Positions 8,206 through 50,676 of a stretch of 64,000 nt of DNA are shown one piece after another. Below the pieces are notes generated by a model. That model did no database searches and was not told where the DNA came from. It saw only the letters and a list, made by a program, of their open reading frames with translations. The first letter of the stretch is position 1. The number at the start of each line of letters is the position of its first letter. The position numbers and the translations under genes are program-made. This stretch comes from an uncultured Actinomycetes bacterium (GTDB lineage: Bacteria > Actinomycetota > Acidimicrobiia > IMCC26256 > DASPTH01), in NCBI GenBank assembly GCA_963815405.1, contig CAWFGR010000006.1:82350-146349 (forward strand). Reading direction: 5' to 3'.

Positions 8206-8218
8206 CCGCGCGCCGCCG

Positions 8219-11499: not shown

Positions 11500-11599
11500 G
11501 CCCCAGTATCCACCCTGAGGCAGCGCCCGTGAAACTACGCGGACATTTCGGACGCCCGACAGCGATGCGCCCGCCGGTCGGGAGCGAGCGTCGTGAGAG

Positions 11600-11680
11600 T
11601 GGGCCGGGTTGGATTCGAACCAACGTAGCTTGCGCAGCAGTTTTACAGACTGCCCCCTTTGGCCACTCGGGTACCGACCC
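11600..11680 (-). tRNA. tRNA-Tyr (anticodon GTA, long variable arm)
   Basis: Minus strand GGGTCGGTACCCGAGTGGCCAAAGGGGGCAGTCTGTAAAACTGCTGCGCAAGCTACGTTGGTTCGAATCCAACCCGGCCCA. Confidence 0.88.
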
Positions 11681-11728
11681 AGGGGCCGCGTAGAGTACCA
11701 GCCCGTTCGCGAGGAGCAGGAGGTGGCC

Positions 11729-12217
11729 GTGCCGACATTCGACGTCGTCTCCGAGGTCGACCTGCAAGAGGTCCGCAACGCAGTGGACCAGGCACAGCGC
11801 GAAGTCGCGACCCGCTACGACTTCAAGGGCACCGACACCACCGTCGAGCTCGCCGACAAGGCGATCGAGATGCACACCGAGAGCGAGTCGCGCCTTCAGG
11901 CACTCGTCCAGGTGCTCGAGGAGAAGCTGGTGAAGCGCAAGATCTCGCTGAAGGCGCTCGACTACGGCAAGGTCGAAGAGGCCACGAAGGGCACCGTGCG
12001 CCAGACGGCCAAGCTCCAGATGGGGATCAACGCCGACAAGGCCAAAGAGATCGGGAAGTTCATCAAGGAGCTCAACCTGAAGGGTGTCTCCCATCAGGTC
12101 CAGGGCGACCAGCTCCGCGTGAGCGCCAAGAAGCGCGACGACCTCCAAACCGCGATCGCCGCGATGCGCGACCACGACTTCGACGTACCCCTGCAGTTCA
12201 CGAACTTCCGTGACTAA
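11729..12217 (+). CDS. yajQ: YajQ family (UPF0234) nucleotide-binding protein
   Basis: GTG at 11729 after GGAGCAGGAGG. VPTFDVVSEVDLQEVRNAVDQAQREVATRYDFKGTDTTVEL...LQFTNFRD. Confidence 0.85.
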   Translation: MPTFDVVSEVDLQEVRNAVDQAQREVATRYDFKGTDTTVELADKAIEMHTESESRLQALVQVLEEKLVKRKISLKALDYGKVEEATKGTVRQTAKLQMGINADKAKEIGKFIKELNLKGVSHQVQGDQLRVSAKKRDDLQTAIAAMRDHDFDVPLQFTNFRD

Positions 12218-21371: not shown

Positions 21372-23329
21372 TCCTCGTCGGACGTCGACGCCGCGAGGTA
21401 CCGCGTCTTGATCGACTCGACCACCGACGGGTCTGCAAGTGTCGTCGTGTCCCCGAACGCCTGGTCCTCCGCGACATCTCGCAGGAGCCGCCGCATGATC
21501 TTGCCGGAGCGGGTCTTCGGGAGATCCTCGGTGAAGAGGATCGACTTGGGCCGTGCGATCGGGCCGATGTGGTGCGCCACGTGCTCGCGAAGCTGGCCGA
21601 CCAGGGCGTCAGTGGGCTCGTTGCCCGCGCGGAGGATCACGAACGCCGAGATCGCCTGTCCCGTCGTCGCGTCCTTGGTGCCCACGACGGCGGCTTCGGC
21701 GACCGCCGGGTGGCCGACGAGCGAGTGCTCCACCTCGGCGGTCGAGATGTTGTGGCCCGAGACCAACATGACGTCGTCGACGCGCCCCAGGAGCCAGAAG
21801 TAACCCTCCTCGTCGCGCTTCGCGCCGTCGCCAGCGAAGTACGCGCCCTCGAAACGGCTCCAGTAGGTGTCCTCGAACCGCTGCGGGTCGCCCCAGATCC
21901 CGCGCAGCATCGACGGCCAGGGGCGGGTAAGGGTGAGGAAGCCACCACCCGGGATCGACACGGCGTTGCCGTCCTCGTCGACGACATCGGCGCCGATGCC
22001 CGGCAGAGGGAACGTCGCGCTGCCCGGCTTGAGCACCGTCGCCCCCGGCAGCGGGCTGATCATGATGGCGCCCGTCTCGGTCTGCCACCACGTGTCGACG
22101 ACCGGACAGCGCTCACCACCGATGTGCTGCCAGTACCACACCCAGGCCTCGGGGTTGATCGGCTCGCCCACCGACCCGAGGAGCCGCAGCGATGACAAGT
22201 CGCGACCGGCGGGGAATTGCGGACCCCACTTCATGAACGTGCGGATCGCGGTGGGGGCCAGATAGAGGATCGTGACCTGGTGCTTCTCGACGATCTCCCA
22301 GAGGCGATCCTTCTCCGGGTAGTCGGGTGATCCCTCGTACATGACGCTCGTCGCGCGGTTCGCGAGCGGGCCGTACACGATGTAGGAGTGGCCGGTCACC
22401 CAGCCGACGTCGGCCGCGCACCAGTAGATGTCCTGCTCGGCATCGAGGTCGAAGACGTTGCGGTGCGTCCACGCGACCTGCGTGAGGTACCCGCCGGTCG
22501 TGTGCATGATCCCCTTGGGCCGCGCCGTGGTTCCGCTCGTGTAGAGCAGGTAGAGCAGGTCCTCGGCGTCCATCGGCTGCGGCGGACATTCCGGCGACTG
22601 GCCGGGGACGAGATCATGCCACCAGACATCTCGTCCCTCGGTCATGGGCACGTCCTGGCCGGTGCGGCGCAGCACGAGCACCTTCTCGATCGTGGGGCAC
22701 TCCGCGACCGCCTCGTCGGCCGTCGTCTTGAGCGGCACCACGTTCCCGCGCCGCCACGCACCGTCGCCCGTGATGAGGACCTTGGCCCCCGCGTCCTGGA
22801 TCCGGTCACGCAGCGAGTCGGAAGAGAACCCGCCGAAGACAACGGAGTGAGCGGCGCCGATGCGCGCGCAGGCGAGGAGCGCCGTGGGGAGCTCCGGCAC
22901 CATGCCGAGATAGATGTTCACCCGGTCGCCCTTGCGCACACCGAGTGCCTTGAGCGCGTTCGCGAGACGACTGACGTCGGCAAGGAGCTCCGCGTACGTG
23001 ATCACCCGGGTGTCGCCGGGCTCGCCTTCCCAGTAGTACGCGACCTTGTCGCCCGCGCCTGCCGCGACATGGCGATCGAGGCAGTTGTACGCGACGTTGA
23101 GCTTGCCCCCGACGAACCATTTGGCGAACGGTCGATTCCACTCGAGGATGGTGTGCCAGTCCTCGTACCAGTCGAGCAGGTCGGCGGCTTGACGCGCCCA
23201 GAAGCCCTCGAAGTCGCGGTCCGCCTCGTCGTAGATGTCGCTGCCGACGATGCGTGCGTGCTGCTTGAAGCTCTCAGGCGGTGGGAACGTTCGACCTTCG
23301 GCGAGCAGCGACTCGATGGTGTCGGACAT
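21368..23329 (-). CDS. acs: Acetyl-CoA synthetase
   Basis: MSDTIESLLAEGRTFPPPESFKQHA...KWFVGGKLNVAYNCLDRHV...YTSGTTARPKG...LPKTRSGKIMRRLLRD. Confidence 0.93.
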   Translation of the reverse strand: MSDTIESLLAEGRTFPPPESFKQHARIVGSDIYDEADRDFEGFWARQAADLLDWYEDWHTILEWNRPFAKWFVGGKLNVAYNCLDRHVAAGAGDKVAYYWEGEPGDTRVITYAELLADVSRLANALKALGVRKGDRVNIYLGMVPELPTALLACARIGAAHSVVFGGFSSDSLRDRIQDAGAKVLITGDGAWRRGNVVPLKTTADEAVAECPTIEKVLVLRRTGQDVPMTEGRDVWWHDLVPGQSPECPPQPMDAEDLLYLLYTSGTTARPKGIMHTTGGYLTQVAWTHRNVFDLDAEQDIYWCAADVGWVTGHSYIVYGPLANRATSVMYEGSPDYPEKDRLWEIVEKHQVTILYLAPTAIRTFMKWGPQFPAGRDLSSLRLLGSVGEPINPEAWVWYWQHIGGERCPVVDTWWQTETGAIMISPLPGATVLKPGSATFPLPGIGADVVDEDGNAVSIPGGGFLTLTRPWPSMLRGIWGDPQRFEDTYWSRFEGAYFAGDGAKRDEEGYFWLLGRVDDVMLVSGHNISTAEVEHSLVGHPAVAEAAVVGTKDATTGQAISAFVILRAGNEPTDALVGQLREHVAHHIGPIARPKSILFTEDLPKTRSGKIMRRLLRDVAEDQAFGDTTTLADPSVVESIKTRYLAASTSDED

Positions 23330-23405
23330 GCCTGTTCCCCCTTGCGGACTCCGCGGCGCGGTCAGGCTATCCCGTCGTCTCGACGCTGCGGCAGGCGCAG
23401 CCCGG

Positions 23406-24524
23406 TCAGGGAACGTAGCGAGCGCTGGCCGCGATGGCGTCGACTGCCAACTTGTTCGCGTCGTGCTCGGCCCCGGGCTTTCCGATCGTGTCGATGTGGA
23501 GGACGAGTCCCGGCCCCCATTGGATCTCATAGAGGTAGAACCTGGTTCCAGCGGGAGAGAAACCGACTCCGTTGTATTCGCCTTCGAGCACCGTCGTTGC
23601 CCGACCGTCGATCGTGGTGCTTCTGGTCGAGATCCGCGCGACCGAAGTCTGTCCCGGCGGCGAAGACCAATCCCACGGCTGACCTGGGCTCACCGAGATC
23701 GGCACGGGCGCGTCGCTGTTCCGGATGACTAGAAAGGGCTGCGTCCCGAAGACACGGCAGCGGAAGTCGTCGCTCAGCTCGACGAAGGCGCCGTTCGGAA
23801 CGTCGATGCGGAAGTGACCAGGATCACTGGTGCACGACATCGGCCTCGACCGAGCAGCGGGGAGTCGCACGACCAGTTGACCCTGGGTGGGCTCGATCAG
23901 TTGGAAGGGACGACGCGCGTCGAGCCCGATGATCCACGTGAGCTCGCCTTCGAAGTCCTGAGTCCGGACGACCTCGAGAACCCCCGACGGGCTACCGGGA
24001 TGCAGATCGCGCCCGGGAGACGTCATGCCTGGCGTGAGTTCCGGGGTTCCCGCTGCATGCGAGAACTGGACTACGAGGAACGCGTTCCCTTCGACCGCGA
24101 CACGCTCCCCTCGCGGGCTGTCCGAGAACGGCCCCGCCTGGTATTCGGCCGTCCAGTCCGGCGTGCCACCCGAGAAGCTGAATCCGACCTCGTCGACACA
24201 GTCGCTCGCCTGCACCTGGACGTTGATGAGCACCGTCGAGTTCGGCGGGTTCGACAACTGTCCTGTGCCGTGCTGTCGATCCGTCGCTCCCGAAGGACTG
24301 CATGCGACCGCCGATGTCGTGGTCGGCGGCGCCGGCGTCGTGGGCACCGTCGCACCGGTGGCGGGCGTGGTCGCCGCCGTGGTCGGGGTTCCACCGGTCA
24401 CGCGCGAGTCCTGCTGGAGCACCGACCACACGAGCCAGCCGCCCACGCTGAGCAGCACGACCAGGCACGCGGCGACGGCTGCGAGAGGACGGCTTCGCCT
24501 CCACGGAGAGCCCTGGCGCAGCAC
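23406..24524 (-). CDS. Membrane-anchored Thr/Pro-rich extracytoplasmic protein, possible anti-sigma partner (N-terminus may begin at 24603 through a frame break)
   Basis: RSRPLAAVAACLVVLLSVGGWLVW TM segment, then a TTAATTPATGATVPTTPAPPTTT linker. MADLEEQIRKIAANREGQVRA-TGA lies just upstream, overlapping the sigma gene stop. Confidence 0.5.
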   Translation of the reverse strand: MLRQGSPWRRSRPLAAVAACLVVLLSVGGWLVWSVLQQDSRVTGGTPTTAATTPATGATVPTTPAPPTTTSAVACSPSGATDRQHGTGQLSNPPNSTVLINVQVQASDCVDEVGFSFSGGTPDWTAEYQAGPFSDSPRGERVAVEGNAFLVVQFSHAAGTPELTPGMTSPGRDLHPGSPSGVLEVVRTQDFEGELTWIIGLDARRPFQLIEPTQGQLVVRLPAARSRPMSCTSDPGHFRIDVPNGAFVELSDDFRCRVFGTQPFLVIRNSDAPVPISVSPGQPWDWSSPPGQTSVARISTRSTTIDGRATTVLEGEYNGVGFSPAGTRFYLYEIQWGPGLVLHIDTIGKPGAEHDANKLAVDAIAASARYVP

Positions 24525-24595
24525 ACGTGGCGGCTCGTCACGCGCGTACCTGGCCCTCGCGGTTCGCCGCGATCTTGCGGATCTGCTCCTCGAGA

Positions 24596-25090
24596 TCAGC
24601 CATGGCTCGCCACCCCCAAGTGCTCACGGAGACGGACCATCGCTCGAGCGATGTGAGTGCCCACGGTCGAGGGGGACACGTCGAGCGCGACCGCGGTCTC
24701 CCCATACGTCCACTCGCAGCCATGGACCAGCCAGACCGCCTGCGCTTGCGCAGGCGAGAGCTCCCGCAAGGCGTCGGGCAATCCCGGCTCGATATCAGGC
24801 ACCCGCGTGTCGCACGGCCATTCGAGCCAGCCCTGCCTGCGAGTGCGCGACTTCGACTGTCCCACTCGGAACAAGTACCCGGACGGGTTCTCCATGGCCA
24901 TGACTCGCTCCCGGTGTTCCCACGCGTAGGCGAACGCTTCCGCGAGGGCGTCGGCGACAGACTCGCGAGGGAGGTTCCCGGTGAGCGCGCGTCGGAGCCC
25001 GGGCTCGGTCCTGAGCACGAAGCTCTCGAAGTCGTCGTCGCGTTCCATGCCCTCGTCCTTCATAACCCGCCTGGGCGCGGTTCGCGCCAC
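24596..25090 (-). CDS. ECF-like sigma-70 family factor
   Basis: ...AEAFAYAWEHRERVMAMENPSGYLFRVG...LSPAQAQAVWLVHGCEWTYGETAVALDVSPSTVGTHIARAMVRLREHL. Confidence 0.75.
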   Translation of the reverse strand: MARTAPRRVMKDEGMERDDDFESFVLRTEPGLRRALTGNLPRESVADALAEAFAYAWEHRERVMAMENPSGYLFRVGQSKSRTRRQGWLEWPCDTRVPDIEPGLPDALRELSPAQAQAVWLVHGCEWTYGETAVALDVSPSTVGTHIARAMVRLREHLGVASHG

Positions 25091-25100
25091 ACGCCTCGGG

Positions 25101-26255
25101 TCAGCGGCGGAACACGAGCACGCGGTGAGCTCCGAGGCCGGCGGGATCGGTGAGCGCGGCAGCCTCGCTCACGCGGCTGCGATGGGTCACCGCCTCGAGG
25201 TCGCCGATGTGCGCGCGCGCCCGCCATCCCTCCCGAGCGGCAGCCGTCAGCTCCTCGAGCCCGAGCTCCTCCAACCACTCGGCTTGCGTGGCGTCGCGCA
25301 CCAGCTCCAAACCCGCGTGGCCGGCCACGCGGGTGAGGCCGTCCGAAGGGACGTCGGCGGTGATGTCGCACGCGCCCGGATCGTCGAGGGGTGAGGCTGC
25401 TCGCTCGTGGCTCCGGTAGGTCCGGAGCCACGACGTCATCTCGCGCTCGACGAGCTCCTCGGGCGTTGCCATGTAGTCGACGACGGCCAGGAAGCCGGCG
25501 TCCAGGAGCTGGGCGACCCGGCGCACCCACGCCTGCGCCGCGGCGGGCAGCGGGATGCGCGCGCCATCCGGGATCCGGGCTGCACCAGCCATGACATCGG
25601 CGGCGTGGCCGACCGCGGGCGCGGCGGGCAGGGTGAGCTCGACCAGCCGGTCACCCTCGATGCCCACCCGTACCTCGCGCCAGCCTTCGCCCGATCGTTC
25701 GACGATGCCGAACGGGAGGTTGTCGAGCAGCTCGTTGGCGAGCACCACACCGATGATCGGGAACGACGGCAGGTCCTCCAACGCGGTGACGATGGGGCCC
25801 GACCCGGGCACCGCCTCGGCCGCTTCGCCCGGAGCGCTCGGCAGCACCGGCCCGATCGCGTCCTCGAACGGCTCGACGTGGAGCAATTCACGCTGTGCCG
25901 CGCGGAGCGCGCCCGACCGCTCGACCAGGACGTAGCGCAGCGCATTCGCGCACGCCGGCTCCGCGTGGAGCACGTCCGCGGCGAGCCGGCCCCGGCCCGC
26001 TCCGGCCTCGACGACGAAGAAGGGATCGGGACGGTCGAGCTGGTCCCACCATCGGTCGAGCGCACGCGCGACAAGCGCTCCGAACAACGGCCCGACCTCC
26101 GGGCTGGTGACGAAGTCCGCACCGCTCCTCCCCGCGCCGCCGCCCTCGGTGAAGAAGCCGCCGTCGCCGTAGAGCGCGAGCTCCATGAACGCGTCGAATG
26201 CGATCGGACCCTCGCGCCGGATCAGCTCCCCGAGCCGCCCGGCGAGCGCGCTCAC
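25101..26255 (-). CDS. SAM-dependent methyltransferase, MidA/NDUFAF7 (DUF185) family
   Basis: GPIAFDAFMELALYGDGGFF...DFVTSPEVGPLFGALVA...FVVEAGAGRGRLAADVL...ANELLDNLPF...DYM. GTG start 1 nt after the nuoN stop. Confidence 0.75.
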   Translation of the reverse strand: MSALAGRLGELIRREGPIAFDAFMELALYGDGGFFTEGGGAGRSGADFVTSPEVGPLFGALVARALDRWWDQLDRPDPFFVVEAGAGRGRLAADVLHAEPACANALRYVLVERSGALRAAQRELLHVEPFEDAIGPVLPSAPGEAAEAVPGSGPIVTALEDLPSFPIIGVVLANELLDNLPFGIVERSGEGWREVRVGIEGDRLVELTLPAAPAVGHAADVMAGAARIPDGARIPLPAAAQAWVRRVAQLLDAGFLAVVDYMATPEELVEREMTSWLRTYRSHERAASPLDDPGACDITADVPSDGLTRVAGHAGLELVRDATQAEWLEELGLEELTAAAREGWRARAHIGDLEAVTHRSRVSEAAALTDPAGLGAHRVLVFRR

Positions 26256-26256
26256 C

Positions 26257-27720
26257 TCAGCCGCGCGTGAACGCCAGCTCGCCGATGCGCGCGAACAGCT
26301 GCGGGTAGATACCCACCACGAGCACGATCGCGCCGGCGATCCCGATGGCAGCGACGAGCGCCGTCGGCATGGTGGCCTCCTGCGTGTGGCTGGGATCCGG
26401 AGCGTGGAACCAGATCCGGCGCGCGACGCCTGCGTAGTAGAAGAACGCGATCACCGAGTTCACTGCGGCAACGATCGCCAAGACGACCGCGGGCGTCGAG
26501 TGCGCGTCGAGGAGGGCTCGGAACATCACGAACTTGGCGAACCATCCGGCGAGCGGCGGGATCCCGGCGAGTGAGAACAAGAACATGGACATCACGACCG
26601 CGAGCCACGGCGACGTGGTGCCCAGGCCCGAGTAGGTGACGATGTCGGCCGAGCGCGTGCGGCGCGCCACCGCGATGACGACGGCGAACGCACCGAGGTT
26701 CATCGCGCCGTAGATGAGCAGGTAGATCACGACCGCTTCGAACGCAGACTTCTGGGCGGTGCCGTCCCCCGCGATCGCGAGCGGAGCAAGGATGAAGCCG
26801 CCCTGCGCGATGGACGAGTACGCGAGCATCCGCACGATGTTCGTCTGGCGCAGGGCGACGAGGTTGCCGATCGTCATCGACGCCGCCGCCAGGATCCAGA
26901 GCGCAATCTCCCACGAGTCACGCGACTCGAGGAAGCCGAAGCGGATGATCGACAGCAGCGCGACGAAACCGCCGGCCTTGGATGCCACCGACAGGAACGC
27001 GGTGACCGGCGTCGGAGCGCCCTCGTAGGTGTCAGGCGTCCAGAAGTGGAATGGGACCGCGCTCACCTTGAAGGCGAAGCCCGCCAGCGTCAGGAAGATC
27101 GCGACCGTGAACAGGGCCGGCGTGTGCGTCCCGGCAACCTTCGCAATGTCGCTGAGCCGGGTCGAGCCCGCGGCGCCGTAGACGAACGACATCCCGTAGA
27201 GCATGACGGCCGAGGACAAGACGCCGAAGACGAAGTACTTGATCGCGGCTTCGTTGGAGTTGCCGTCGTGCTTTCGCCACGCTACGAGCACGAAGGTCGG
27301 CATCGTGATCGTCTCGAGCGCCACGAAGATCGACACCAGGTCGCGCGCCGATGCCATCGCGGTCATGCCGAGGACCGACGTCAACAGCAAGAAGTAGAAC
27401 TCGCCCTGGTAGTAGTCGCCCTCACTGATGTAGTCGACCGAGAGCAGCAGCGACACGTAGGCAACGACGAGGAAGAACGCCTTGAGCGCCAAGGCGTAGT
27501 TGTCGACCACGTATGCGCCGCCGAACAGAGAGCGATCCGATCCGTCGGCGGCGAGCGTCAGCACGGGAACGAGCGCGGCGAGGACGCCGATCGAAGCGAT
27601 CCGGGACGTCGTGAAGCGAGAACGCTCCGGCCAGAGCAAGTCGGCCACGAGCACGACGATGATCGTTGCCGTGAGCACGATCTCCGGCGCGATCGCGTGG
27701 AAGTCGACGTGCGGGTTCAT
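26257..27720 (-). CDS. nuoN: NADH-quinone oxidoreductase subunit N (11-gene set)
   Basis: ...DLVSIFVALETITMPTFVLVA...KVSAVPFHFWTPDTYEGAPTPVTAFLS... Confidence 0.9.
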   Translation of the reverse strand: MNPHVDFHAIAPEIVLTATIIVVLVADLLWPERSRFTTSRIASIGVLAALVPVLTLAADGSDRSLFGGAYVVDNYALALKAFFLVVAYVSLLLSVDYISEGDYYQGEFYFLLLTSVLGMTAMASARDLVSIFVALETITMPTFVLVAWRKHDGNSNEAAIKYFVFGVLSSAVMLYGMSFVYGAAGSTRLSDIAKVAGTHTPALFTVAIFLTLAGFAFKVSAVPFHFWTPDTYEGAPTPVTAFLSVASKAGGFVALLSIIRFGFLESRDSWEIALWILAAASMTIGNLVALRQTNIVRMLAYSSIAQGGFILAPLAIAGDGTAQKSAFEAVVIYLLIYGAMNLGAFAVVIAVARRTRSADIVTYSGLGTTSPWLAVVMSMFLFSLAGIPPLAGWFAKFVMFRALLDAHSTPAVVLAIVAAVNSVIAFFYYAGVARRIWFHAPDPSHTQEATMPTALVAAIGIAGAIVLVVGIYPQLFARIGELAFTRG

Positions 27721-27721
27721 T

Positions 27722-29272
27722 TCACAGGGCCTTCGTCAAGTGCGACACCATGTTGGTGACCGCCGGGTCCTGGATCTTGAAGAGCAGATTCGGGTAGATC
27801 CCGAGCGCGACGACGAAGGCGAGGATCGGCGCCCACGCGATCCATTCGGGTCCGTGCACGTCGTGGATGTGCGCACCCTCGAACTCCGCCTTCGGCGTCC
27901 CGAACGCGACCCGCTGCAGCATCCACAGCAGGTATCCCGCCGCCAGGACAGTGCCGATCGCGGCCACCACCATGAAGATCCGGAACGTCCACAGTGTGCC
28001 GCCGCTGGTCCCGAAGAGGCCGTGCGGGTTGACCGGGTTGTACGCCGACAGGATGGCCGGGAACTCGCCCCAGAAACCGGCGAGGCCGGGAAGCCCGAGC
28101 GACGCCATCGCCGAGAAGCTGAGGATCCAGCCCAGGTGTGGCGCCTGCGTCAGCAGCCCACCCAGGCGACTGAGCTCTCGGGTCTCGTAGCGCTCCTGCA
28201 CCGAGCCGGCCACGAAGAACAGCATCCCGGTGATCAACCCGTGCGCCACCATGCCGAACAGCGCGGCGTTGATGCCGAAGTTCGTCAGCGTCGCGACGCC
28301 GAGCATCACGAAGCCCATGTGTGCGATCGACGAGAACGCGATCAGTCGCTTCATGTCGCGTTGCGCGAGACACCCGAGCGCGCCGTAGATGATGCCGATG
28401 ACCGCGAGGAGACCGATCCAAGGCGCCCACGTCTGTGCCGCGCCGGGCAGCACCGGCAGCGCGATCCGAATGAACCCGTACACGCCGAGCTTCAGAAGGA
28501 TCGCGGCCAGCAACACCGATCCCGCGGTCGGGGCTTCGGTGTGGGCGTCGGGAAGCCAGGTGTGGAAGGGGAACATGGGAACCTTGATCGCGAAGCCGAG
28601 GAACAGGCCGGCGAACAACAGCACCTGGGTACCGTGCGCGATCCCTGCGCCGTGGAGCTGCGACAGGCGCACGATATCGAAGGTGTGCTCCTTCGAGAGG
28701 AAGAACAGCGCCAGGAAGCTCAGCAACATCATCGCCGAACCGAAGAGCGTGAACAGGAAGAACTTGATCGACGCGTACTCCCGATTGGGGCCTCCCCAGA
28801 CTCCGATCATGAAGAACATGGGAAGCAGCACGATCTCGAAGAAGATGAAGAACAGGATGAGGTCCTGCGCGGCGAACGTTCCGTTCATGCCGACCTCGAG
28901 CAGCAACATCAGCGCGAGGAAGGCCTTCGGGTTGTGCGGCTCAGGGAAGTGGTTCCACGAATAGATCACGACCAGCGTCGTGATGAACATCGAGAGCACG
29001 AGCATCGGCAGCGAGATGCCGTCGATGCCGACGTGGTAGCGGCTGTTGATGACGTCGATCCACGACTTGTCGACCGTGAACTGGAGCTTGCCGCTCCCGT
29101 AGTCGAAGCGGGCAAGGAGGACCACGCCGACCGCGAGCGTGACCAGCGTGGTGGCGAGCGTCACCATCTTGATCAGCTGCTCTTCGGCTCTCGGGATCAG
29201 CAGCACGATCGCCATCCCGACGGCCGGGATGAAGATCGCCAGCGTGAGAGCCCAGCTGTCGAACCAATCCAT
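27722..29272 (-). CDS. nuoM: NADH-quinone oxidoreductase subunit M (11-gene set)
   Basis: ...GIDGISLPMLVL...KVPMFPFHTWLPDAHTEAPTAGSVLLAAILLKLG... Confidence 0.9.
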   Translation of the reverse strand: MDWFDSWALTLAIFIPAVGMAIVLLIPRAEEQLIKMVTLATTLVTLAVGVVLLARFDYGSGKLQFTVDKSWIDVINSRYHVGIDGISLPMLVLSMFITTLVVIYSWNHFPEPHNPKAFLALMLLLEVGMNGTFAAQDLILFFIFFEIVLLPMFFMIGVWGGPNREYASIKFFLFTLFGSAMMLLSFLALFFLSKEHTFDIVRLSQLHGAGIAHGTQVLLFAGLFLGFAIKVPMFPFHTWLPDAHTEAPTAGSVLLAAILLKLGVYGFIRIALPVLPGAAQTWAPWIGLLAVIGIIYGALGCLAQRDMKRLIAFSSIAHMGFVMLGVATLTNFGINAALFGMVAHGLITGMLFFVAGSVQERYETRELSRLGGLLTQAPHLGWILSFSAMASLGLPGLAGFWGEFPAILSAYNPVNPHGLFGTSGGTLWTFRIFMVVAAIGTVLAAGYLLWMLQRVAFGTPKAEFEGAHIHDVHGPEWIAWAPILAFVVALGIYPNLLFKIQDPAVTNMVSHLTKAL

Positions 29273-29319: not shown

Positions 29320-31398
29320 TTAGATGTTCTTCACCAAGAGACCGAGGCTCAGCATCGAGACCCCGGCGAACATGAGCAGCGCGTAGCGCTGCACGCGACC
29401 GGACTGGAGATAGCGCAGGAGGCCACCGGTCTCGCCGGTCACCTCCGCGATCTCGTTGACCGCTCCGTCGACTCCCCGCTGGTCGATCACGTCGTAGGTG
29501 AAGCGACCCGCGCGCATCGCGAGCCGGCCGGTGCCGTTCACGACACCGTCGATCACGTGCTGGTTGAACCAGTACGCGCCCTTGGCGATCGGACCCTTGA
29601 TGGATCCGACAATCACGTTCTCGTAGAGGTCGTCGAGGTAGAGCTTCTTCACGAGGAACTGGTAGCCGGCACACGCCAGCGCGTTCCGTTCGGTGAGGCC
29701 ATGCATCACCGTGTTCTGCTCCCGGCGGAACCAGTAGGCCGCGCTCACGCCGATCCCGAGCAGGGCGATGACGACGGCCAGCGCCGCCCCCCCGTAGCTG
29801 AAGTCCGCGTGCACGAGGTGTGGGAACGTGCTCGTCGGCTCGAACCACTCCCTGAACTTCTCGATGCCGAGAGGTGCGGCGTTGAGCAACCCCGCGAAGG
29901 TCGAGAAGACGGCGAGCACGACGAGGGGAATCGTGATCAGCGGCTCCGACTCGTGCGGATGGTGGTGGCCGCGGTACTCGCCGAAGAAGGTCAGGTACAC
30001 GCAGCGCGTCATGTACGCCGCGGTCAGGGCCGCGCCGATGAGTCCGATGACCAAGAACGTGTCGTAGCCGGTCTTGCCCGCAGTGACGAGGATCTCGTCC
30101 TTCGACCAGAAGCCGGCGAAGGGCGGAAGTCCCGCGAGCGCGATCGAGCCGATCATGAACGTCGTGAAGGTGATCGGCATGTGCTTGCGGAGCCCACCCA
30201 TGTCCGCCTTCATGTCGAACGAGTGGTGCGAGCCCGAGTGGCTCACCGATCCGGCACCCAGGAACAGGAGCGCCTTGAAGAACGCGTGGGTGAAGAGGTG
30301 GAAGATCGCGGCGGTCCACGCGCCGCAGCCCAGCGCCATGACCATGTAGCCCAGCTGGCTGATCGTGGAGTACGCGAGCACCTTCTTGATGTCGCGCTGC
30401 ACGAAGGCGAGCGCAGCTCCGACGAGGATCGTCACCCCGCCGATCAGCGCCATCGCGTTGACGCCGCCGTGGGCGATCGAGAAGCCCTCGAAGAAGACGG
30501 GATACAAGCGCGCGACGAGGTACACGCCGGCCACCACCATCGTGGCCGCGTGGATCAACGCCGAGACCGGTGTCGGGCCGGCCATGGCGTCGGGCAGCCA
30601 GGTGTGGAGCGGGAACTGACCGCTCTTGCCGATGACGCCGATGAACAAGCACGCCGCGCCGGCGAGCAAGAAGCCGTGCCGAGCACCGCCGCTCAGCGCA
30701 TAGGCGTTGATGCCGCCGATGCTGAAGGTACCGGCGGCGAAGAACGTGATCACGATGCCGATGAGCAGCCCGATGTCACCCGTGCGAGTCGTGAGAAAGG
30801 CCTTGAGCGCCGCCTTCGAGTTCTCCGGCTCTTCCCACCAGTGGCCGATCAGGGCGAAGGAGCACAGACCGACGCCCTCCCAGCCCACGAGGAGCTGCAG
30901 CGTGTTGTCGGCGACGACGAGCAGCAACATCGAAGCGGTGAAGAGGCTCAGCATCGCGAAGTAATGGGTGAACCGGCGATCGCCGCGCAGGTAGGCAACC
31001 GAGTAGATGTGCACCAAGATCGAGATCAAGCCGACGACGAACATCATCATCACGGCGAGGCCGTCGATGCGCGTCCCCACTTCGAACGCGACCCCACCGC
31101 TGCGCCACCACGTGATCGCGTGGACCACCGGCTTGACGACGGCACCCTCGTGGCCACCACCCGCGACCGCGGCCTTGACGCTGCTCCCGAGCGCGCGCAG
31201 GGCGCCGCCCGACGTGTGACCCGCGTCGTCGACCCGGTTGATCCACTGGACGAGCGCCACGACTGCGAGCACGAACGAGGACCCGACGGCGGTGATGCCG
31301 ATCTCCGCGCCCTTCAGCGGGAGGCGCTTGCCGAAGAAGAGGATGAGGACGAACAACAGCGCGGGGAGCGTCGGGATGATCCAGGCGTGATCGAGCAT
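29320..31398 (-). CDS. nuoL: NADH-quinone oxidoreductase subunit L (11-gene set)
   Basis: ...[21 protein letters not shown]...[36 protein letters not shown]... Confidence 0.9.
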   Translation of the reverse strand: MLDHAWIIPTLPALLFVLILFFGKRLPLKGAEIGITAVGSSFVLAVVALVQWINRVDDAGHTSGGALRALGSSVKAAVAGGGHEGAVVKPVVHAITWWRSGGVAFEVGTRIDGLAVMMMFVVGLISILVHIYSVAYLRGDRRFTHYFAMLSLFTASMLLLVVADNTLQLLVGWEGVGLCSFALIGHWWEEPENSKAALKAFLTTRTGDIGLLIGIVITFFAAGTFSIGGINAYALSGGARHGFLLAGAACLFIGVIGKSGQFPLHTWLPDAMAGPTPVSALIHAATMVVAGVYLVARLYPVFFEGFSIAHGGVNAMALIGGVTILVGAALAFVQRDIKKVLAYSTISQLGYMVMALGCGAWTAAIFHLFTHAFFKALLFLGAGSVSHSGSHHSFDMKADMGGLRKHMPITFTTFMIGSIALAGLPPFAGFWSKDEILVTAGKTGYDTFLVIGLIGAALTAAYMTRCVYLTFFGEYRGHHHPHESEPLITIPLVVLAVFSTFAGLLNAAPLGIEKFREWFEPTSTFPHLVHADFSYGGAALAVVIALLGIGVSAAYWFRREQNTVMHGLTERNALACAGYQFLVKKLYLDDLYENVIVGSIKGPIAKGAYWFNQHVIDGVVNGTGRLAMRAGRFTYDVIDQRGVDGAVNEIAEVTGETGGLLRYLQSGRVQRYALLMFAGVSMLSLGLLVKNI

Positions 31399-31405: not shown

Positions 31406-31705
31406 TCAGCCCCTCAGATGGTCGACGGTGTCGAGGTCGGGACTGTGGATGTTGCGGTAGAGCAGCAGGATGATGGCGAGCCCGATGCCGACCTCGGCAG
31501 CCGCGATCGTGATGACGAACAGCGCGAACACCGCTCCGTCCACGGAGTGGTGGAACGCCGAGAACGCGATCAGGTTGATGTTCACCGCGTTGAGCATCAG
31601 CTCGACGCTCATGAGCACGAGGACCGCGTTCTTGCGGGCCAGGACGCCGTAGACGCCGGTGCAGAAGAGGAAAGCGCTGAGGATCAGGAAGTTGTTGAGG
31701 ACCAC
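31406..31705 (-). CDS. nuoK: NADH-quinone oxidoreductase subunit K (11-gene set)
   Basis: 99 aa. ...[20 protein letters not shown]...[18 protein letters not shown]... Confidence 0.9.
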
Positions 31706-31706
31706 G

Positions 31707-32210
31707 TCAGTCCCTCCGCGCGATCACGACCGCGCCGACGAGCGCGGCGAGGAGCAGCATCGAGACCACTTCGAACGGGACGACGTAGGTGCGAAAGACG
31801 CTGGTTGCGACCGTGTTCGCCTTGCCGACGGCGAGCAGCTTGTCGTTCAACTGCACCTTGTCGCCGCCGTAGGCGTCCACGAGCAGCGCAGTGACGACCC
31901 CGAAGAAAAAGAGTGAGACCGCGGCCGAGGCGAAGCGCTGGCGGTTGTCGAGGCTGCCGCTGGGTCTCATGGGTGCCCGCGTGAGCATGATCCCGAACAG
32001 GAACAGGATCACGACCGCACCGATGTAGATGAGAACCTGCACCCACGCCACGAATTCCGAGGCCAACAGGATGTACTGCGCGGCTGCCCCCGCCAGCACG
32101 ACGACGAGGAACAGTGCGGCGTGCACGACATTCTGCGAGCGCACCACGCCGATCGCCGCCGCCGCCATCGCGACCGCAAGGATCCAGAACGCGACGTTTT
32201 GCGCGATCAC
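31707..32210 (-). CDS. nuoJ: NADH-quinone oxidoreductase subunit J (11-gene set)
   Basis: GTG start in a GTGA overlap with nuo[50 protein letters not shown]... Confidence 0.85.
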
Positions 32211-32697
32211 TTCTTCTTGACCTCGGCGCCCAGCTCGAGGGGTTCGGGCTCGGGGACCGTCGCCATCCACTCGCCGAGCTTGCGCTTGTCGTGGAGGAGG
32301 TTCGCGATGTTCGACTCCGAGTACTCGAAGTCGGGGCTCCAGAACAGCGCATCGAACGGGCAGACCTCGACACAGATGCCGCAGTACATGCACAGCGCGT
32401 AGTCGATGTCGAAGCGATCGAGCACGCTGACGGTGCGCTCGCGCCCGCCCTCACGCGTCGCGGCGGACGCTTCTCCTTGTGCCCTTCGATGTAGATGCAC
32501 CAGTCCGGGCAGGAGCGGGCGCAGAGCATGCACACCGTGCAGTTCTCCTCCTTGAGCGCGATGACCCCGCGCGACCGAGGCGCGGGATCCTCCTTCTCGT
32601 GGGGATACTGCACGGTGACCGCGGGCTTGAGCATCGTCTTGAACGTGACGCCCAACCCGCTGATGAGACCCGGGACCTTCTTCTTCTTCTTCGCCAT
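32207..32697 (-). CDS. nuoI: NADH-quinone oxidoreductase subunit I (11-gene set), frame break near 32455-32480
   Basis: [23 protein letters not shown]...[22 protein letters not shown] in one frame, and ...[23 protein letters not shown] in the next. Span 491 nt (3n+2). Confidence 0.85.
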
Positions 32698-33729
32698 CAG
32701 AAGACCACCTTCAGCACGCCGGTGGCGAGGATGTTCACGAGACCGAGGGGAATGAGGAACTTCCACGCAAGCGCTTGGAGCTGGTCCTCACGCAGCCGCG
32801 GGTAGGTGAAGCGGACCCAGAACATCACGAAGGCGACGAGCATCGTCTTGGTGATGAGCACGATCGGCCCGAGGACCCGCATCAACCCGACGTTGTGGAT
32901 GAACGGAATGCTCCAACCGCCGAGGAACAAGGTGGCCGACAGCGCAGCGAACGCGAAGGCGGTGCCGAACTCGCCGATGAAGAAGAACAAGAAGCGGAAG
33001 CCCGTGTACTCGACCATGTAGCCGGCCACGAGCTCGCTCTCGGCGACGGGCATGTCGAACGGCGTCTGGGTCAGCTCGGCCTGCGAGGACACGAGGAACA
33101 GAGCGAAGCCAACGAACTGGGTCAAGATGAAGGGGAAGCCGAGCCCGTCCCACCCGAAGATCGCGTCGTGGGACTGCGCGCCGACGATGCCCTGCAAGCT
33201 CATCGTGCCGGCCTGCACGACGACCCCCACCACGGCGAGCAGGAGCGGGAGCTCGTACGCGATGAGCTGCGCCGCCGCCCGCAACGCGCCGAGCAACGAG
33301 AACTTGTTGGCGCTCGCCCACCCGGCCATCAGCACGCCGATCACCGAGAGGCTGGACACTGCCGAGCGCGTAGAAGACCCCGACGTCGAGGTCGCGCACC
33401 ACCAGGTCGGGACCGGCTGGGATGACGACGAAGACGAGGAACGTCGACATCACCACGACCGCCGGCGCGAAGGCGAACACCCACCGATCGGCCTCGCCGG
33501 GAATGATGTCCTCTTTCTGGATGAACTTGATGCCGTCGCCGATGAGCTGGAACCAGCCGTGGAAACCACCGGGGTCCATCGGGCCGAGCCGGCTCTGCAT
33601 GTGGCTCATCATCTTCAGCAGGAAGACGTAGCCGAGCACGAGCGCCGCGGCGGGCACCAGACCGAGGATGACCACGGTCTTGATGGCGAGCGTGGTCCCC
33701 CATCCGACATCGACGCCCAAGACGTTCAT
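32697..33729 (-). CDS. nuoH: NADH-quinone oxidoreductase subunit H (11-gene set), frame break near 33360
   Basis: ...[26 protein letters not shown]...GVFYAL then, in the next frame, [36 protein letters not shown]. Span is 3n+1. Confidence 0.85.
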
Positions 33730-33748: not shown

Positions 33749-34954
33749 TCATCGATCGATGTCCCCGAGGATGAAGTACAGGCTCGCCAGGATCGTGATG
33801 ACGTCGGGGACGAAGACGCCGCGGAGCAACCAGGGCAGGATCGAGATGTTGCTGAACGACGCCGATCGGATCTTCACGCGAAACGGACCGGTCGCGCCCT
33901 TCGACACCACGTAGTACCCCATCTGGCCAAGGGGATTCTCGGTCTCGACCCAGACCTCGCCCTCGGGAACCTTGATGATCCGGGGCACTTTGGCCATGAC
34001 GGGGCCCGTAGGGATCCGGTCGAGCATCTGGACCACCATGCGCGCCGACTCGCGCGTCTCTTGCAACCGGACCCAGTAGCGCGCGAAGGAGTCGCCGTCG
34101 GGATGCGTCCAGACCTTGAAGTCGAGCTCGGGGTACACGAGGTACGGCTCGCCGTCGCGGCGGAGGTCCCAGTCGACGCCCGACGCGCGGAGGTTGGAGC
34201 CGGAGACGCCGTACGCGGCCCCGAGGTCAGCCGGGATGATCCCGATCGAGCGTGTGCGGGCTTCGAAGATCTCGTTGCCCGCGACCAGACCCTCGAACGT
34301 GTCGCACGCGTCGAGCACCGTCTTCATCGCGTTGCGCGTGTCGTTGATCCAACCCCACGGAAGGTCGTCCTTGATGCCGCCGATGCGGTTGAAGTTCGGG
34401 TGGAAGCGCCCGCCGGTCGCCGCCTCGATCAGGTTGAGCACATACTCACGGTCGCGGAACCCGTAGAACGCCGGGGTGATCGCGCCCACCTGCAGACCCA
34501 TCTCGCCGAGGAACAGCACGAAGGTCGCGATGCGACTGAGCTCGGTGAGGATCGTGCGGATGTACTGCGCGCGGGGAGGTGCCTCGATCCCCATCAGCCG
34601 TTCCGCGGCGTGGATGAAGGGCACCTCGTTCGCGAAGCTCGAGAGCCAGTCGATTCGGTTGATCAGCGTCGTGATCTGCGGGTAGGTCCGGAACTCGGTG
34701 AGCTTCTCGTAGCCGCGGTGCATGTACCCGATGATCGGGTCGGCCGCGAGCACGCGTTCACCGTCGAGGCGCACGACGAGTCGCAGGGTTCCGTGCGTGG
34801 CCGGGTGCTGCGGCCCGAGGTTCAAGATCATGTCGCCCGTGTCGAGCTCGACGTTCACCTGCGCCTCGGCGAGGTGGCGGAGCGCGCGCGGATCCAGCTC
34901 GATCGCCGGCGCGGCCGTCCCCGCACCTGGACCGGTCGGGGTCCCGCTGCTCAT
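33749..34954 (-). CDS. nuoD: NADH-quinone oxidoreductase subunit D (11-gene set)
   Basis: ...[25 protein letters not shown]...[11 protein letters not shown]...[15 protein letters not shown] overlap with nuoC. Confidence 0.9.
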
Positions 34955-35631
34955 GTCGACGCCTCGCCGCTCGGCTCGCCGTCGCCTTCTTCGCCGGGCA
35001 TCGGCTCGACGTCGACGAGCCCCGGCCAGGGCTTCACGACGCGCGCCAGGAGCGGGAAGTCCTTGCGGCCGGGATGCCCTTCGAACTCCGACGGGAGATA
35101 GAGGTGGCGCAACGCGGGATGTCCCTCGAAGCCGATGCCGTACATCTCCCAGCACTCACGCTCGTGCCAGTCGGCACCGGGGTACACGTCGACCCATGAC
35201 TGCGCGGTCGGCGCAGCCTCGTCGACGTCGACTTTCAGGACCACGCCGACGTTGCGCGACGTCGATTGGACCCGAGCGAAGACCTGGAAGCGTCCCGCGG
35301 ATCCCGCGACGCCGTACGTCGTCTCCTGCGGCTGCACGGGCGAGGACGTATCGCCACCCGCGTCGTCACCGCTCGTCGGCGCCGGCATCCAGTCGATCCC
35401 GGAGACGAACGACAGGTAGTCGCACCCCAAGGCGCCGCGCGCGAGCTCGGCGCTGCGTCGCCACGCGTCGGGGCGTACCCGGACGACCGGGATGCCGAAG
35501 TTCGCGGCCGATTCGAGGATGGCGTCGCCGAGCTCGGCCTCGAACCGGGCGAGCAGCTCGGCGTGCGCGTCGTCGAGCGCGTGTGGGTCGGTCGAGGTGG
35601 TCTCCGCCCCGGATCCCGTGACGTCAGTCAA
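34951..35631 (-). CDS. nuoC: NADH-quinone oxidoreductase subunit C (11-gene set)
   Basis: TTG start overlapping the nuoB stop. ...[14 protein letters not shown]...[24 protein letters not shown]... Acidic tail. Confidence 0.8.
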
Positions 35632-36150
35632 CGACGATCGGCTCCCCGCGCCAGCGCTGCTCCAGCTCGTGGTTCCCGACGCCTTCGTTCTGGATGCGCT
35701 CCTGCAACAGGACGATGCCCTCGATGAGCGCCTCGGGTCGGGGCGGACACCCGGGACGTACACGTCGACCGGGATGACCTGGTCGATCCCCTTCGTCACG
35801 GAGTACGAGTCCCAGTAGGGGCCGCCGCAGTTGGCGCACGAACCCATCGAAATGACGTATTTGGGGTCGGGCATCTGCTCGTAGAGCCGCTTCACCGCCG
35901 GGGCCATCTTGTCGGTGACCGTGCCCGAGATCACGATGAGGTCTGCCTGGCGGGGGCTCGCCGGGAACGGGATCACGCCGAGCCGCATGAGGTCGTACCG
36001 GGGGCTGGCGAGTGCGGCACCCATCTCGATCGCGCAGCAGGCCAAGCCCCACTGGAACATCCACAGCGAGTACTTGCGACTGTAGTTCAACAGCCAGGTG
36101 AGCGGCTTGAGGCCCGGCTTCGAGAGCGTCCCCTTCTCGATCAGGCCCAC
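35624..36150 (-). CDS. nuoB: NADH-quinone oxidoreductase subunit B (11-gene set), frame break near 35750-35756
   Basis: ...[16 protein letters not shown]...[12 protein letters not shown]...VDVYVPG then [19 protein letters not shown] in the next frame. The site is CCCGGG-T. Span 527 nt (3n+2). Confidence 0.85.
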
Positions 36151-36503
36151 CGCAACACCCCCTTGCGCCAGGCGTAGACGAGCCCGAGGGCCAGGATCAG
36201 GATGAACACACCCATCTCGACGAGCCCGAAGGTCCCGAGAGACTCGAGCCTGACCGCCCACGGGAAGATGAAGACGGCCTCGACGTCGAACATCACGAAG
36301 AGCAGCGCGTACACGTAGTACCGCACGTTCGACTGGCCGAAGCCGAGCACGGCATCCGAGCCCGCCTCGTACGGGAGCAACTTCTCCTCCCGAGGTCGGG
36401 AGGGTCGCAGCAGCCGGCCGGCCCCCAGCATCGCCCCGACCATGAGCAGGGCCGCGCCGACGAAGACCGCCACGGCGAGGTAGCTCCGATAGAACTCGGT
36501 CAC
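36141..36503 (-). CDS. nuoA: NADH-quinone oxidoreductase subunit A (11-gene set)
   Basis: GTG start. ...[11 protein letters not shown]...[25 protein letters not shown]... Confidence 0.9.
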
Positions 36504-47464: not shown

Positions 47465-47527
47465 GCTTGCCCGCTCTCGGTGCTGCGCACCGGGCCGCAC
47501 TGCGCCCCGACGGCGCCACGCTCCGCT

Positions 47528-47550
47528 GCGAACCGGGATACCCGGCTCGC
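47528..47550. repeat. Intra-operon palindromic element copy B (GCGAACCGGG-ATA-CCCGGCTCGC)
   Basis: In the nuoF-nuoG spacer. One stem mismatch relative to copy A. Confidence 0.65.
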
Positions 47551-47561
47551 GGACGCTCCGC

Positions 47562-48878: not shown

Positions 48879-49390
48879 GCCCGCCCGCTCCCACCGCTCA
48901 CAGGGGCCGGCGTCCCCGACAGCGTGCGCGCCACACGGGCACCGCTGCGGTACTCGGCCACGAGATCGTCGGCGGACGCCGAGGTGGTCGGTCCGTGATA
49001 CTCGTAGTTGACCTGCAGAACCGGGGCGAGATCGCACGCCGCGATGCATTCGACTTCCTCGACCATCACGTCGGGATCGTCAGCGTACCGGTGCCGGAGG
49101 TGCTCGAGCAGGTCGGCACCGCCGTTGACGAGACAGCTCACGTTGGTGCACACCGACACCACGAGGGAGCCCTCCGGCTCGCGCTTGAACATCGTGTAGA
49201 AGCTGCACGTCCCGAGCACCTGCGCAGACGTGAGGCCGAGGAGGTCGGCGATCTCCGCGATCGCGGGGTCGGTCACCGCACCGTCCTGATCCTGTGCCAG
49301 GTGCAGCAACGGCAGCGTCGCCGACCGCGCTTGCGGGTATCGAGCGATGATCTCGCGTGCCAGCTTGAGGTTGGCGTCGGTGAACGGCAC
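48875..49390 (-). CDS. nuoE: NADH-quinone oxidoreductase subunit E (14-gene operon)
   Basis: ...SATLPLLHLAQDQDG...VSVCTNVSCLVNGG...VECIAACDLAPVLQVN... Confidence 0.9.
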   Translation of the reverse strand: MPFTDANLKLAREIIARYPQARSATLPLLHLAQDQDGAVTDPAIAEIADLLGLTSAQVLGTCSFYTMFKREPEGSLVVSVCTNVSCLVNGGADLLEHLRHRYADDPDVMVEEVECIAACDLAPVLQVNYEYHGPTTSASADDLVAEYRSGARVARTLSGTPAPVSGGSGRA

Positions 49391-50676
49391 TAGCGGTCGA
49401 CCTCCCCCATGATCGGGTCGATGCTCGACACGATCGCGACCGCATCGGCGACCAGGCTGCCGGGCACCATCGCGCTCATCGACTGGAGGTTGTAGAAGGA
49501 CGGCCCGCGAATGTGCATGCGCACCGGCTTCGCCGACCCGTCGGAGACCAGGTAGCAGCCGATCTCACCTCGCGGTGATTCGATCGCGATGTAGGTCTCG
49601 CCCGCAGGCACACGGAAGCCCTCGGTGAAGAGCTTGAAGTGGTGGATCAACGCCTCCATCGACTCGTCGATGCGCGCACGCGGCGGCGGCGTGACCTTGT
49701 GATCCTGGGTGCGGTAGTCACCCGAGGGCATGGCGTCCACGCATTGGCGCACGATCTTGAGCGACTCGAGGATCTCATAGAGCCGGATGACGTAGCGGTC
49801 GTACGTGTCGCCGTGCTCCGTGTAGATGACGTCGAAGTCGACGTCGTCGTACGCGAGGTACGGCTGCGCCTTGCGGAGATCCCACGCGAAGCCGGTGGAG
49901 CGCAGAATCGGCCCGGTCGCACCGAGGGCGAGCGCCTGCTGCGTGGTGATGGTGCCGATCCCGACCGTGCGTTCGCGCCAGATGGGGTTCTCGGAGAGCA
50001 GCTCCTGGTACTCGGCGACACCTCGTTCGACGAGGTCGCAGACGTCGAGGGTGGCGTCCTCCCAACCGTCGGGGAGGTCGGCCGCGACGCCGCCGGGGCG
50101 GATGAAGTTGTGGTTCATCCGCAAGCCGGTGATGCGCTCGAGCAGACGCAGCGTCTCCTCACGCTCGCGCCAGCCGTAGATCATCATCGACACCGCGCCG
50201 ATGTCCATTCCGTTGGTCGCCTGGAACAAGAGGTGCGACGAGATGCGGTTCAGCTCGACGAGCATCATGCGGATCCACGTCGCGCGCGGTGGGATGTCCA
50301 GCTCGAGCAGGCGCTCGACCGCGAGGCAGTAGACGAGCTCGTTCGACAGCGGCGACGCGTAGTCCATGCGGGTGACGTTCGTCGGACCCTGGACGTAGGT
50401 GAGCTCCTCGCCCGTCTTCTCCATGCCGGTGTGGAGGTAGCCGACGACGGCCTTGCTCCGCAGCACGACCTCGGAGTCGAGCTCCATCATGATCCGGAGC
50501 ACGCCGTGCGTGGACGGGTGCTGCGGGCCCATGTTCATGATCATGGTGTCGCCGGCCTCGGGCCACGGCCCGCCGGTCATCACCAGCTCGCGGTCGGTCG
50601 GGGGGCGCAGCTCCTGCGCGCCCTCGTCGGTCTGGCGCTCGAGGCGCGACATCTCGCGGTCCGTCGGAAGCGTCAT
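49390..50676 (-). CDS. nuoD: NADH-quinone oxidoreductase subunit D (14-gene operon)
   Basis: ...MIMNMGPQHPSTHGVLRIMMELDSE...VGYLHTGMEKT...SSIDPIMGEVDR. Confidence 0.92.
   Translation of the reverse strand: MTLPTDREMSRLERQTDEGAQELRPPTDRELVMTGGPWPEAGDTMIMNMGPQHPSTHGVLRIMMELDSEVVLRSKAVVGYLHTGMEKTGEELTYVQGPTNVTRMDYASPLSNELVYCLAVERLLELDIPPRATWIRMMLVELNRISSHLLFQATNGMDIGAVSMMIYGWREREETLRLLERITGLRMNHNFIRPGGVAADLPDGWEDATLDVCDLVERGVAEYQELLSENPIWRERTVGIGTITTQQALALGATGPILRSTGFAWDLRKAQPYLAYDDVDFDVIYTEHGDTYDRYVIRLYEILESLKIVRQCVDAMPSGDYRTQDHKVTPPPRARIDESMEALIHHFKLFTEGFRVPAGETYIAIESPRGEIGCYLVSDGSAKPVRMHIRGPSFYNLQSMSAMVPGSLVADAVAIVSSIDPIMGEVDR

Follow-up and report, generated by a model that had tools for sequence, protein, structure and literature searches.

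A MidA/NDUFAF7-family methyltransferase gene directly behind an 11-gene nuo operon in an uncultured member of the Acidimicrobiia, with an arginine of NuoD as its probable target

What does a gene for a mitochondrial-type complex I assembly factor do at the end of a bacterial nuo operon, in a genome that carries a second nuo operon beside it? The question is raised by a stretch of 64,000 nucleotides from an uncultured actinobacterium (contig CAWFGR010000006.1 of assembly GCA_963815405.1, forward-strand positions 82,350 to 146,349), referred to here as the window and numbered from its first letter, in which a gene of the MidA/NDUFAF7 family, called midA below (25101..26255, minus strand, 384 amino acids, GTG start, PF02636), lies immediately behind nuoN2. 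The window has a G+C content of 68%, and its closest named relatives are metagenome-assembled genomes (MAGs) of Acidimicrobiia. A 14-gene nuo operon that includes nuoD1 as well as nuoF, G, H, I, J, L, and N runs along the minus strand from about 52.1 kb to 36.6 kb and is followed, after a 135-nt spacer and on the same strand, by an 11-gene set, nuoA2-B2-C2-D2-H2-I2-J2-K2-L2-M2-N2 (36503 to 26257), which lacks nuoE, F, and G according to Pfam and tblastn and in which neighbouring genes mostly overlap by 1-8 nt. This gene map bears out the initial annotation of the locus, which had described midA as the twelfth gene of a cluster without E, F, and G.

The family of the midA product was examined by profile, motif, and structure comparison. 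The protein matched PF02636 (Methyltransf_28, MidA/NDUFAF7/DUF185, COG1565) over profile positions 1-244 of 249 with an E-value of 1.9e-43 and 149.2 bits, far above the curated cut-off of 23.3 bits, so that the profile search by which the initial annotation had proposed to check its family assignment came out in its favor; no NCBIfam model matched the protein, and no other gene in the window belongs to PF02636. The family motifs, taken as motif I (ExGxGxG) plus DFxTSPE, ANExxDxxP, DY, and PGxxDIT, were present as VEAGAGRG, DFVTSPE, ANELLDNLP, DYM, and PGACDIT and aligned with the same motifs in 4f3n, 1zkd, and 5ztz, and among 27 diverse members of the clade motif I (GxGxG) and the family motif columns were invariant or nearly so. 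Both peptides that had been quoted for the gene, VVEAGAGRGRLAADVL with S-adenosylmethionine (SAM) motif I (VVEAGAGRG, encoded at 26015-25968) and ANELLDNLPF (encoded at 25739-25710), were found in the translation. A profile of the 27 clade members matched 4f3n (Burkholderia COG1565, E 4e-43), 1zkd (Rhodopseudomonas DUF185, E 4e-37), and 5ztz (Dictyostelium MidA, E 2e-33). An AlphaFold2 model of the product (predicted local distance difference test, pLDDT, 91.6; predicted template modeling score, pTM, 0.90) gave 4f3n, 5ztz, 4g67, 5zu0, and 1zkd as top Foldseek matches (E 1e-22 to 6e-26), with template modeling (TM) scores of 0.72-0.79 overall and 0.77-0.79 to 4f3n and 5ztz, while other methyltransferases, as the next fold, stayed below 0.45. 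On this evidence midA codes for a SAM-dependent methyltransferase of class I that belongs to the MidA/NDUFAF7 family. An exhaustive homologue search returned 8814 representative clusters at E ≤ 1e-3, 439 of them at E ≤ 1e-30, and in a tree without alphaproteobacterial or mitochondrial sequences one clade took in the top 150 representatives as well as the loci of Acidimicrobiia, with a long branch to the gamma- and betaproteobacterial homologues.

Given this family, the residue of interest is an arginine of the NuoD subunit. The symmetrically dimethylated arginine of complex I sits in an HRGxE motif (R121 in Yarrowia, R85 in the bovine enzyme, R65 in Paracoccus Nqo4), is modified in the bovine, human, Pichia, and Paracoccus enzymes, and is replaced by threonine in Thermus (PMC8042128, PMC3750175). 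In the 11-gene set, nuoD2 (33749..34954, minus strand) encodes GYMHRGYEK (34729-34703), whose Arg80 is the candidate for methylation; it is the arginine of HRGxE and lies beside Fe-S cluster N2. In the 14-gene set, nuoD1 (49390..50676, minus strand) encodes GYLHTGMEK (50442-50416), with Thr83 at the target position. The difference is not peculiar to the window, as among the matches listed arginine was found in 120 of 120 NuoD2-like homologues (at least 86% identity) and threonine in 120 of 120 NuoD1-like homologues (at least 80% identity). In other phyla, every midA-linked NuoD with a readable motif retains the arginine. Since NuoD1 has threonine there, the 14-subunit complex is predicted to be unable to serve as a substrate at the HRGxE site, and midA is attached to the only one of the two operons whose NuoD could. 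The initial annotation had pointed instead to an HG(T/V)LR segment kept by both NuoD copies. This is literally correct, with HGVLR in NuoD1 and HGTLR in NuoD2, but the segment does not contain the methylated arginine: in an alignment to Thermus Nqo4 (2fug_4), HGVLR contains the quinone ligand His38 and the HxGxE position is residue 64, and HG(T/V)LR was rejected as the methylation site. The Arg/Thr split between the two copies makes the case for NuoD as substrate sharper than that earlier motif argument.

The NuoB subunits show the reverse exchange. NuoB1 has arginine (AGR, 51553-51582, minus strand) where NuoB2, encoded by nuoB2 (35624..36140, minus strand), has threonine (SGT, 35899-35928). 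The same two combinations occur in solved enzymes, in which NuoD-HTG goes with NuoB-AGR in Thermus (2fug/4hea) and M. smegmatis (8e9g) and NuoD-HRG goes with NuoB-AGT in the mitochondrial and E. coli enzymes, and the midA-linked operons of Nitrospirota likewise combine NuoD HRG with NuoB AGT. This pattern suggests that the NuoB arginine may occupy the place of the NuoD arginine beside cluster N2. A second difference lies at the quinone site, for which a canonical quinone-reducing complex I was taken to have, in Thermus numbering, NuoD His38 in HGxLR and Tyr87 at RxDY. NuoD2 keeps the histidine (THGTLR) but reads RIDW (NRIDW at 34660-34637), with tryptophan at the Tyr87 position, whereas NuoD1 reads RMDY (50373-50350); among the matches listed, RIDW was present in 120 of 120 NuoD2-like and RMDY in 120 of 120 NuoD1-like homologues. 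The midA-linked 11-subunit enzyme of Acidimicrobiia is accordingly best described, judging by this residue, as predicted not to be a standard quinone reductase at the Tyr87 site.

Conservation of the linkage was assessed in the best 80 of 587 relatives, one genome per species, with 46-63% identity and all of the Acidimicrobiia type. In all 80 species loci midA lies on the same strand downstream of nuoK-L-M-N, directly adjacent to the nuo genes in 77 and separated from them by inserts of 1.1-3.6 kb in the other three, and the linked nuo genes match the set-2 paralogues of the window and not set 1. Five relatives that were examined individually read ...nuoL-M-N, midA, acs, HAD_PNKP, htpX, where acs encodes acetyl-CoA synthetase. 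A conserved nuo linkage in related genomes, by which the initial annotation had proposed to test its idea, was therefore found wherever it was sought in this class. Six loci (L014, L023, L029, L051, L056, and L070) with the nuo2-midA-acs block typical of Acidimicrobiia come from MAGs that bear the names Burkholderiales, Bifidobacteriaceae, Sphingomonadales, Acidobacteria, or Rubrobacter, for which mis-binning or mislabelling is likely.

Outside the class, a scan of mixed phyla centred on a deep-branching family member found core nuo genes within 8 kb of midA in 28 of 79 loci, or 24 of 75 after removal of loci that were Acidimicrobiia fetched again, and the arrangements differed from phylum to phylum. 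In eight Nitrospirota loci midA lies directly upstream of nuoA-nuoB-nuoCD, an order checked with Pfam on locus L178, and the midA-linked nuo set of that locus (7935-11929) contains nuoF. Nine loci from Chloroflexota, Limnocylindria, or Polarisedimenticolia have midA, then a small open reading frame (ORF) of no known family, then nuoA onward; in one of this kind (L211, Chloroflexia, 7850-9818) midA overlaps a 136-amino-acid ORF without a Pfam match, with nuoA next. In one cyanobacterium, ndhH lies 1.4 kb upstream of midA. In five other Actinomycetota loci (L181, L183, L189, L196, and L199) midA stands tail-to-tail with, and about 100 nt from, an orphan NuoD-like gene, with no other nuo gene within 8 kb (for example L189, 7977-9083 on the plus and 9087-10274 on the minus strand). 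The orphan NuoD-like protein has 395 amino acids and reads HRGAE or HRAAE, with a 331-amino-acid protein without a Pfam match and a Ser/Thr kinase encoded upstream, and these orphan copies also carry tryptophan at the Tyr87 position. The independently arranged nuo linkages in several phyla argue for a functional tie of midA to complex I, and the orphan midA-NuoD pairs, which have no other nuo gene near them, point to NuoD as the partner.

On the strength of these observations we propose that the midA product probably methylates, most likely by symmetric dimethylation, the HRGxE arginine (Arg80) of its own operon's NuoD2 during assembly. Family, fold, synteny, and the linkage in several phyla lend good comparative support to what the initial annotation had suggested, a methyltransferase that is encoded in the operon and acts on NuoD in the maturation of complex I, with the correction that the methylated residue lies in HRGxE. 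In the proposed sequence of events, midA would be expressed with the 11-gene operon as its twelfth and last cistron; spacing, common strand, and the lack of terminator-like sites suggest co-transcription, neither promoter-like nor terminator-like sites having been found within 23300-26600. The MidA-like enzyme would then bind newly made NuoD2 and use SAM to methylate Arg80, either ahead of the union of NuoD2 with NuoB2 and cluster N2 or in the course of it. Methylation would be timed to the assembly of the NuoB-C-D module, by analogy with mitochondrial NDUFAF7, which acts on Arg85 of NDUFS2, and with the early NDUFS2-NDUFS7 intermediate.

Read on the minus strand, the junction of nuoN2 and midA consists of the nuoN2 stop TGA (26259-26257), a single G (26256), and the GTG start (26255-26253), exactly as first annotated, with 1 nt between the two genes. 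The window sequence contains no in-frame ATG, GTG, or TTG upstream of this GTG, and the alignments of relatives to the product begin at residues 1-12, which indicates that the start is sound. The only GAGG near midA abuts the start codon, leaving no Shine-Dalgarno sequence at a useful distance, and in the present genome midA is probably translated by termination-reinitiation at TGA-G-GTG. In Acidimicrobiia relatives nuoN and midA are mostly 0-100 nt apart (median about 46 nt), and only about nine loci have a gap of 5 nt or less. Translational coupling to nuoN, as originally described, is thus supported by the 1-nt spacing in this genome but not as a trait of the clade: the 1-nt junction is a feature of the present genome and a minority of relatives, and co-direction and proximity are the rule.

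Several observations weigh against Arg80 methylation by the midA product. E. coli NuoCD keeps the arginine (R249) unmethylated (PMC8042128, PMC3750175), which means that the presence of the arginine does not by itself imply methylation. The midA product is only 22% identical to Dictyostelium MidA, and a long branch separates the Acidimicrobiia clade from the proteobacterial homologues. Around midA genes of the proteobacterial type, core nuo genes were found in 0 of 80 species loci (±8 kb, 1.1 Mb in total), and linkage to nuo as a property of the whole family was rejected; the neighborhood of DUF185 and nuo genes across bacteria, which the initial annotation had suggested tabulating, is thus borne out in the mixed phyla (24 of 75 loci) but not for the proteobacterial type. 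The tryptophan at the position of the quinone-ligand tyrosine indicates that the midA-linked complex would not be a canonical complex I. A Wolbachia MidA has been reported to methylate DNA in E. coli, a result that its authors call preliminary (PMC12455994). Finally, nuoB2, nuoH2, and nuoI2 of the midA-linked operon are each frameshifted in the present assembly.

Some of these points would also fit a methyltransferase that is tied to the 11-subunit complex but modifies something other than Arg80 of NuoD2, such as another residue, another subunit, DNA, or a cofactor. The specificity proposed here is drawn from distant homologues (22-30% identity), the Wolbachia result concerns DNA, and the proteobacterial members, not being linked to nuo, leave room for a family without a single substrate. 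What makes this alternative unlikely, in our judgment, is that the sole residue known as a target of the family segregates exactly with the midA-linked NuoD paralogue, and that several Actinomycetota pair midA with an orphan NuoD alone, which again points to NuoD.

The frameshifts raise the different question of whether, in the present genome, the 11-gene set has turned into pseudogenes and is decaying, with the intact midA as a leftover or in some other use. Three genes are affected. In nuoB2 the G run at about 35749, which lies between VDVYVPG and CPPRPEAL, has lost one base, after which the frame enters nuoC2 (34951..35631, minus strand); nuoH2 (32697..33729, minus strand) has an extra G at 33362/33363, in CTCGGCAGTG; and nuoI2 (32207..32697, minus strand) changes frame near 32455-32470 (KEKRPPRR | EGGRER). 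The 14-gene set was hit as well, however, in the C-terminus of nuoG1 (about 44700-44800, running into nuoH1) and in nuoM1 (about 39750, after some 24 codons), and the frame changes in all five genes are of a single base. In their displaced frames the broken nuo genes still share 73-87% identity with intact orthologues and keep the frames further downstream, the nuoB2 event is a one-base loss within a G run, and among related loci frame changes occurred in 12 of 17 "MFD ... contig_N" assemblies compared to 2 of 63 others, a signature of consensus error. The other window genes tested against the proteins of relatives (among them nuoD2, nuoJ2 to nuoN2, midA, acs, nuoD1, nuoH1, nuoI1, nuoJ1, nuoK1, nuoL1, and nuoN1) gave single high-scoring segment pairs, which also favors consensus error. 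Because nuoG1 and nuoM1 are broken too, the displaced frames are conserved, and the frame changes are skewed toward one assembly type, the three shifts in nuoB2, nuoH2, and nuoI2 probably stem from long-read consensus errors and not from decay, the assembly type of the window being itself presumed; a decaying operon is correspondingly quite improbable. Two apparent fusion proteins, NuoB-NuoC (ORF 34951-36261) and NuoG-NuoH (ORF 43487-47623), were rejected as frameshift artefacts, the former due to the nuoB2 event.

It might also be argued that the order of midA and nuo is merely inherited and without meaning, with a housekeeping methyltransferase that happens to lie between nuoN2 and acs. The whole Acidimicrobiia neighborhood is syntenic (nuo2, midA, acs, HAD_PNKP, htpX, yajQ), conservation within one class could reflect vertical inheritance, and midA usually starts tens of nucleotides away from nuoN2 without overlapping it. 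We consider this very doubtful given the different nuo linkages in Nitrospirota, Chloroflexota, other Actinomycetota, and one cyanobacterium, and given a frequency of 24 of 75 loci where less than about 1% would be expected for a random gene (our own estimate from operon and genome size) and where the proteobacterial-type control gave 0 of 80. We give hardly any credence to the idea that the MidA-like protein binds NuoD2 mainly as a non-catalytic assembly chaperone and could do without methyl transfer, as although NDUFAF7/MidA binds NDUFS2 directly (PMC9006661) and sequence data do not separate binding from catalysis, the whole clade strictly conserves SAM motif I together with the family motifs and a methyltransferase-deficient mutant in Dictyostelium failed to rescue the knockout phenotypes (reviewed in PMC9006661).

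The remaining genes of the 11-gene set, all on the minus strand, are nuoA2, the first gene (36141..36503), nuoJ2 (31707..32210), whose GTG at 32210 overlaps the nuoI2 stop, nuoK2 (31406..31705), nuoL2 (29320..31398), nuoM2 (27722..29272), and nuoN2, the last subunit gene (26257..27720). On the other side of midA, 10 nt after its stop, begins a gene for an extracytoplasmic function (ECF)-sigma-like protein of 164 amino acids with region 4 only (24596-25090, minus strand), followed by genes for an AMIN-domain protein, acetyl-CoA synthetase, and HAD_PNKP. The ECF-sigma-like and AMIN-domain pair (23406-25090) is an insertion in the present genome, as relatives have acs directly after midA, and the window has no htpX (M48), the gene that comes after HAD_PNKP in relatives.

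The window gene resembles mitochondrial NDUFAF7 of human and MidA of Dictyostelium discoideum (5ztz, 5zu0) in its PF02636 domain, its fold (TM score 0.79), its SAM motif I, and its association with the NuoD/NDUFS2 subunit, in which the HRGxE arginine lies beside N2. It differs from them in being only 22% identical, in lying in a bacterial operon, and in belonging with a complex without NuoE, F, and G, in whose NuoD tryptophan takes the position of the quinone-ligand tyrosine. The closest solved sequences are those of Burkholderia thailandensis (4f3n/4g67, 30% identity) and Rhodopseudomonas palustris (1zkd, 25%); proteobacterial members, unlike the window gene, do not stand beside nuo and form a branch separate from the Acidimicrobiia clade. 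The dimethylated Arg65 of Nqo4 in Paracoccus denitrificans is a bacterial instance of the modification. The 14-gene set, with NuoD HTG and NuoB AGR, is of the type of the Thermus thermophilus and Mycobacterium smegmatis complex I (2fug/4hea, 8e9g), which has no methylatable arginine, and offers an in-cell counter-example to the midA-linked set.

The closest precedent for the arrangement is a cluster in Candidatus Actinomarina, which contains afuABC, heliorhodopsin, an 11-subunit nuoA-N, NDUFAF7 (K18164/PF02636), htpX, and pspE (bioRxiv 10.1101/2021.02.01.429150). Like the window, it comes from the same class and has an 11-subunit operon followed by an NDUFAF7 homologue, with a 14-subunit complex I nearby. 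In contrast to it, the 11-gene set of the window is directly preceded by the 14-gene operon, not by heliorhodopsin or an iron transporter, the window has no htpX, and the ECF-sigma-like and AMIN-domain genes are inserted after midA. The genomic link that the initial annotation had pointed out was therefore already described in that preprint, and many of these proteins carry the name NDUFAF7 in JGI/KEGG annotation. The family, its mitochondrial function, the bacterial modification in Paracoccus, and the arrangement of 11-subunit nuo and NDUFAF7 are all known. The preprint does not discuss the NuoD Arg/Thr difference, our literature search found no statement of the NuoD Arg/Thr split, of the NuoB swap, or of the multi-phylum midA-nuo linkage, and papers on the 11-subunit complex I (PMC3144371, PMC4453560) make no mention of a methyltransferase. 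For bacterial MidA/DUF185 proteins, functions have been deduced only in silico (PMC12455994), and mutating the N2-adjacent arginine does not reveal what its dimethylation does, since it destroys the site (PMC8042128).

The value of the locus is limited by the existing NDUFAF7 annotation, by the 2021 preprint that noted the arrangement, and by the source, an uncultured MAG. Within these limits, it provides a natural contrast in one cell, in which one complex I isoform has the NuoD arginine and a dedicated methyltransferase gene and the other has NuoD-Thr with NuoB-Arg. That midA recurs beside nuo genes, or beside nuoD alone, in several phyla lends neighborhood support to NuoD as a conserved substrate and suggests tractable systems for testing NuoD methylation. 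Taken together, the observations also allow a broader reading that we regard as tentative and rather unlikely in full, that NuoD methylation of the MidA type is ancient and widespread outside Proteobacteria, namely among Actinomycetota, Nitrospirota, and Chloroflexota, and that in Acidimicrobiia it has become an isoform-specific maturation code, the N2-adjacent arginine being supplied by NuoB in the 14-subunit enzyme and by a MidA-methylated NuoD in the 11-subunit enzyme. If this were true, the two complex I paralogues would, within one cell, be unable to form functional mixed NuoB-NuoD modules.

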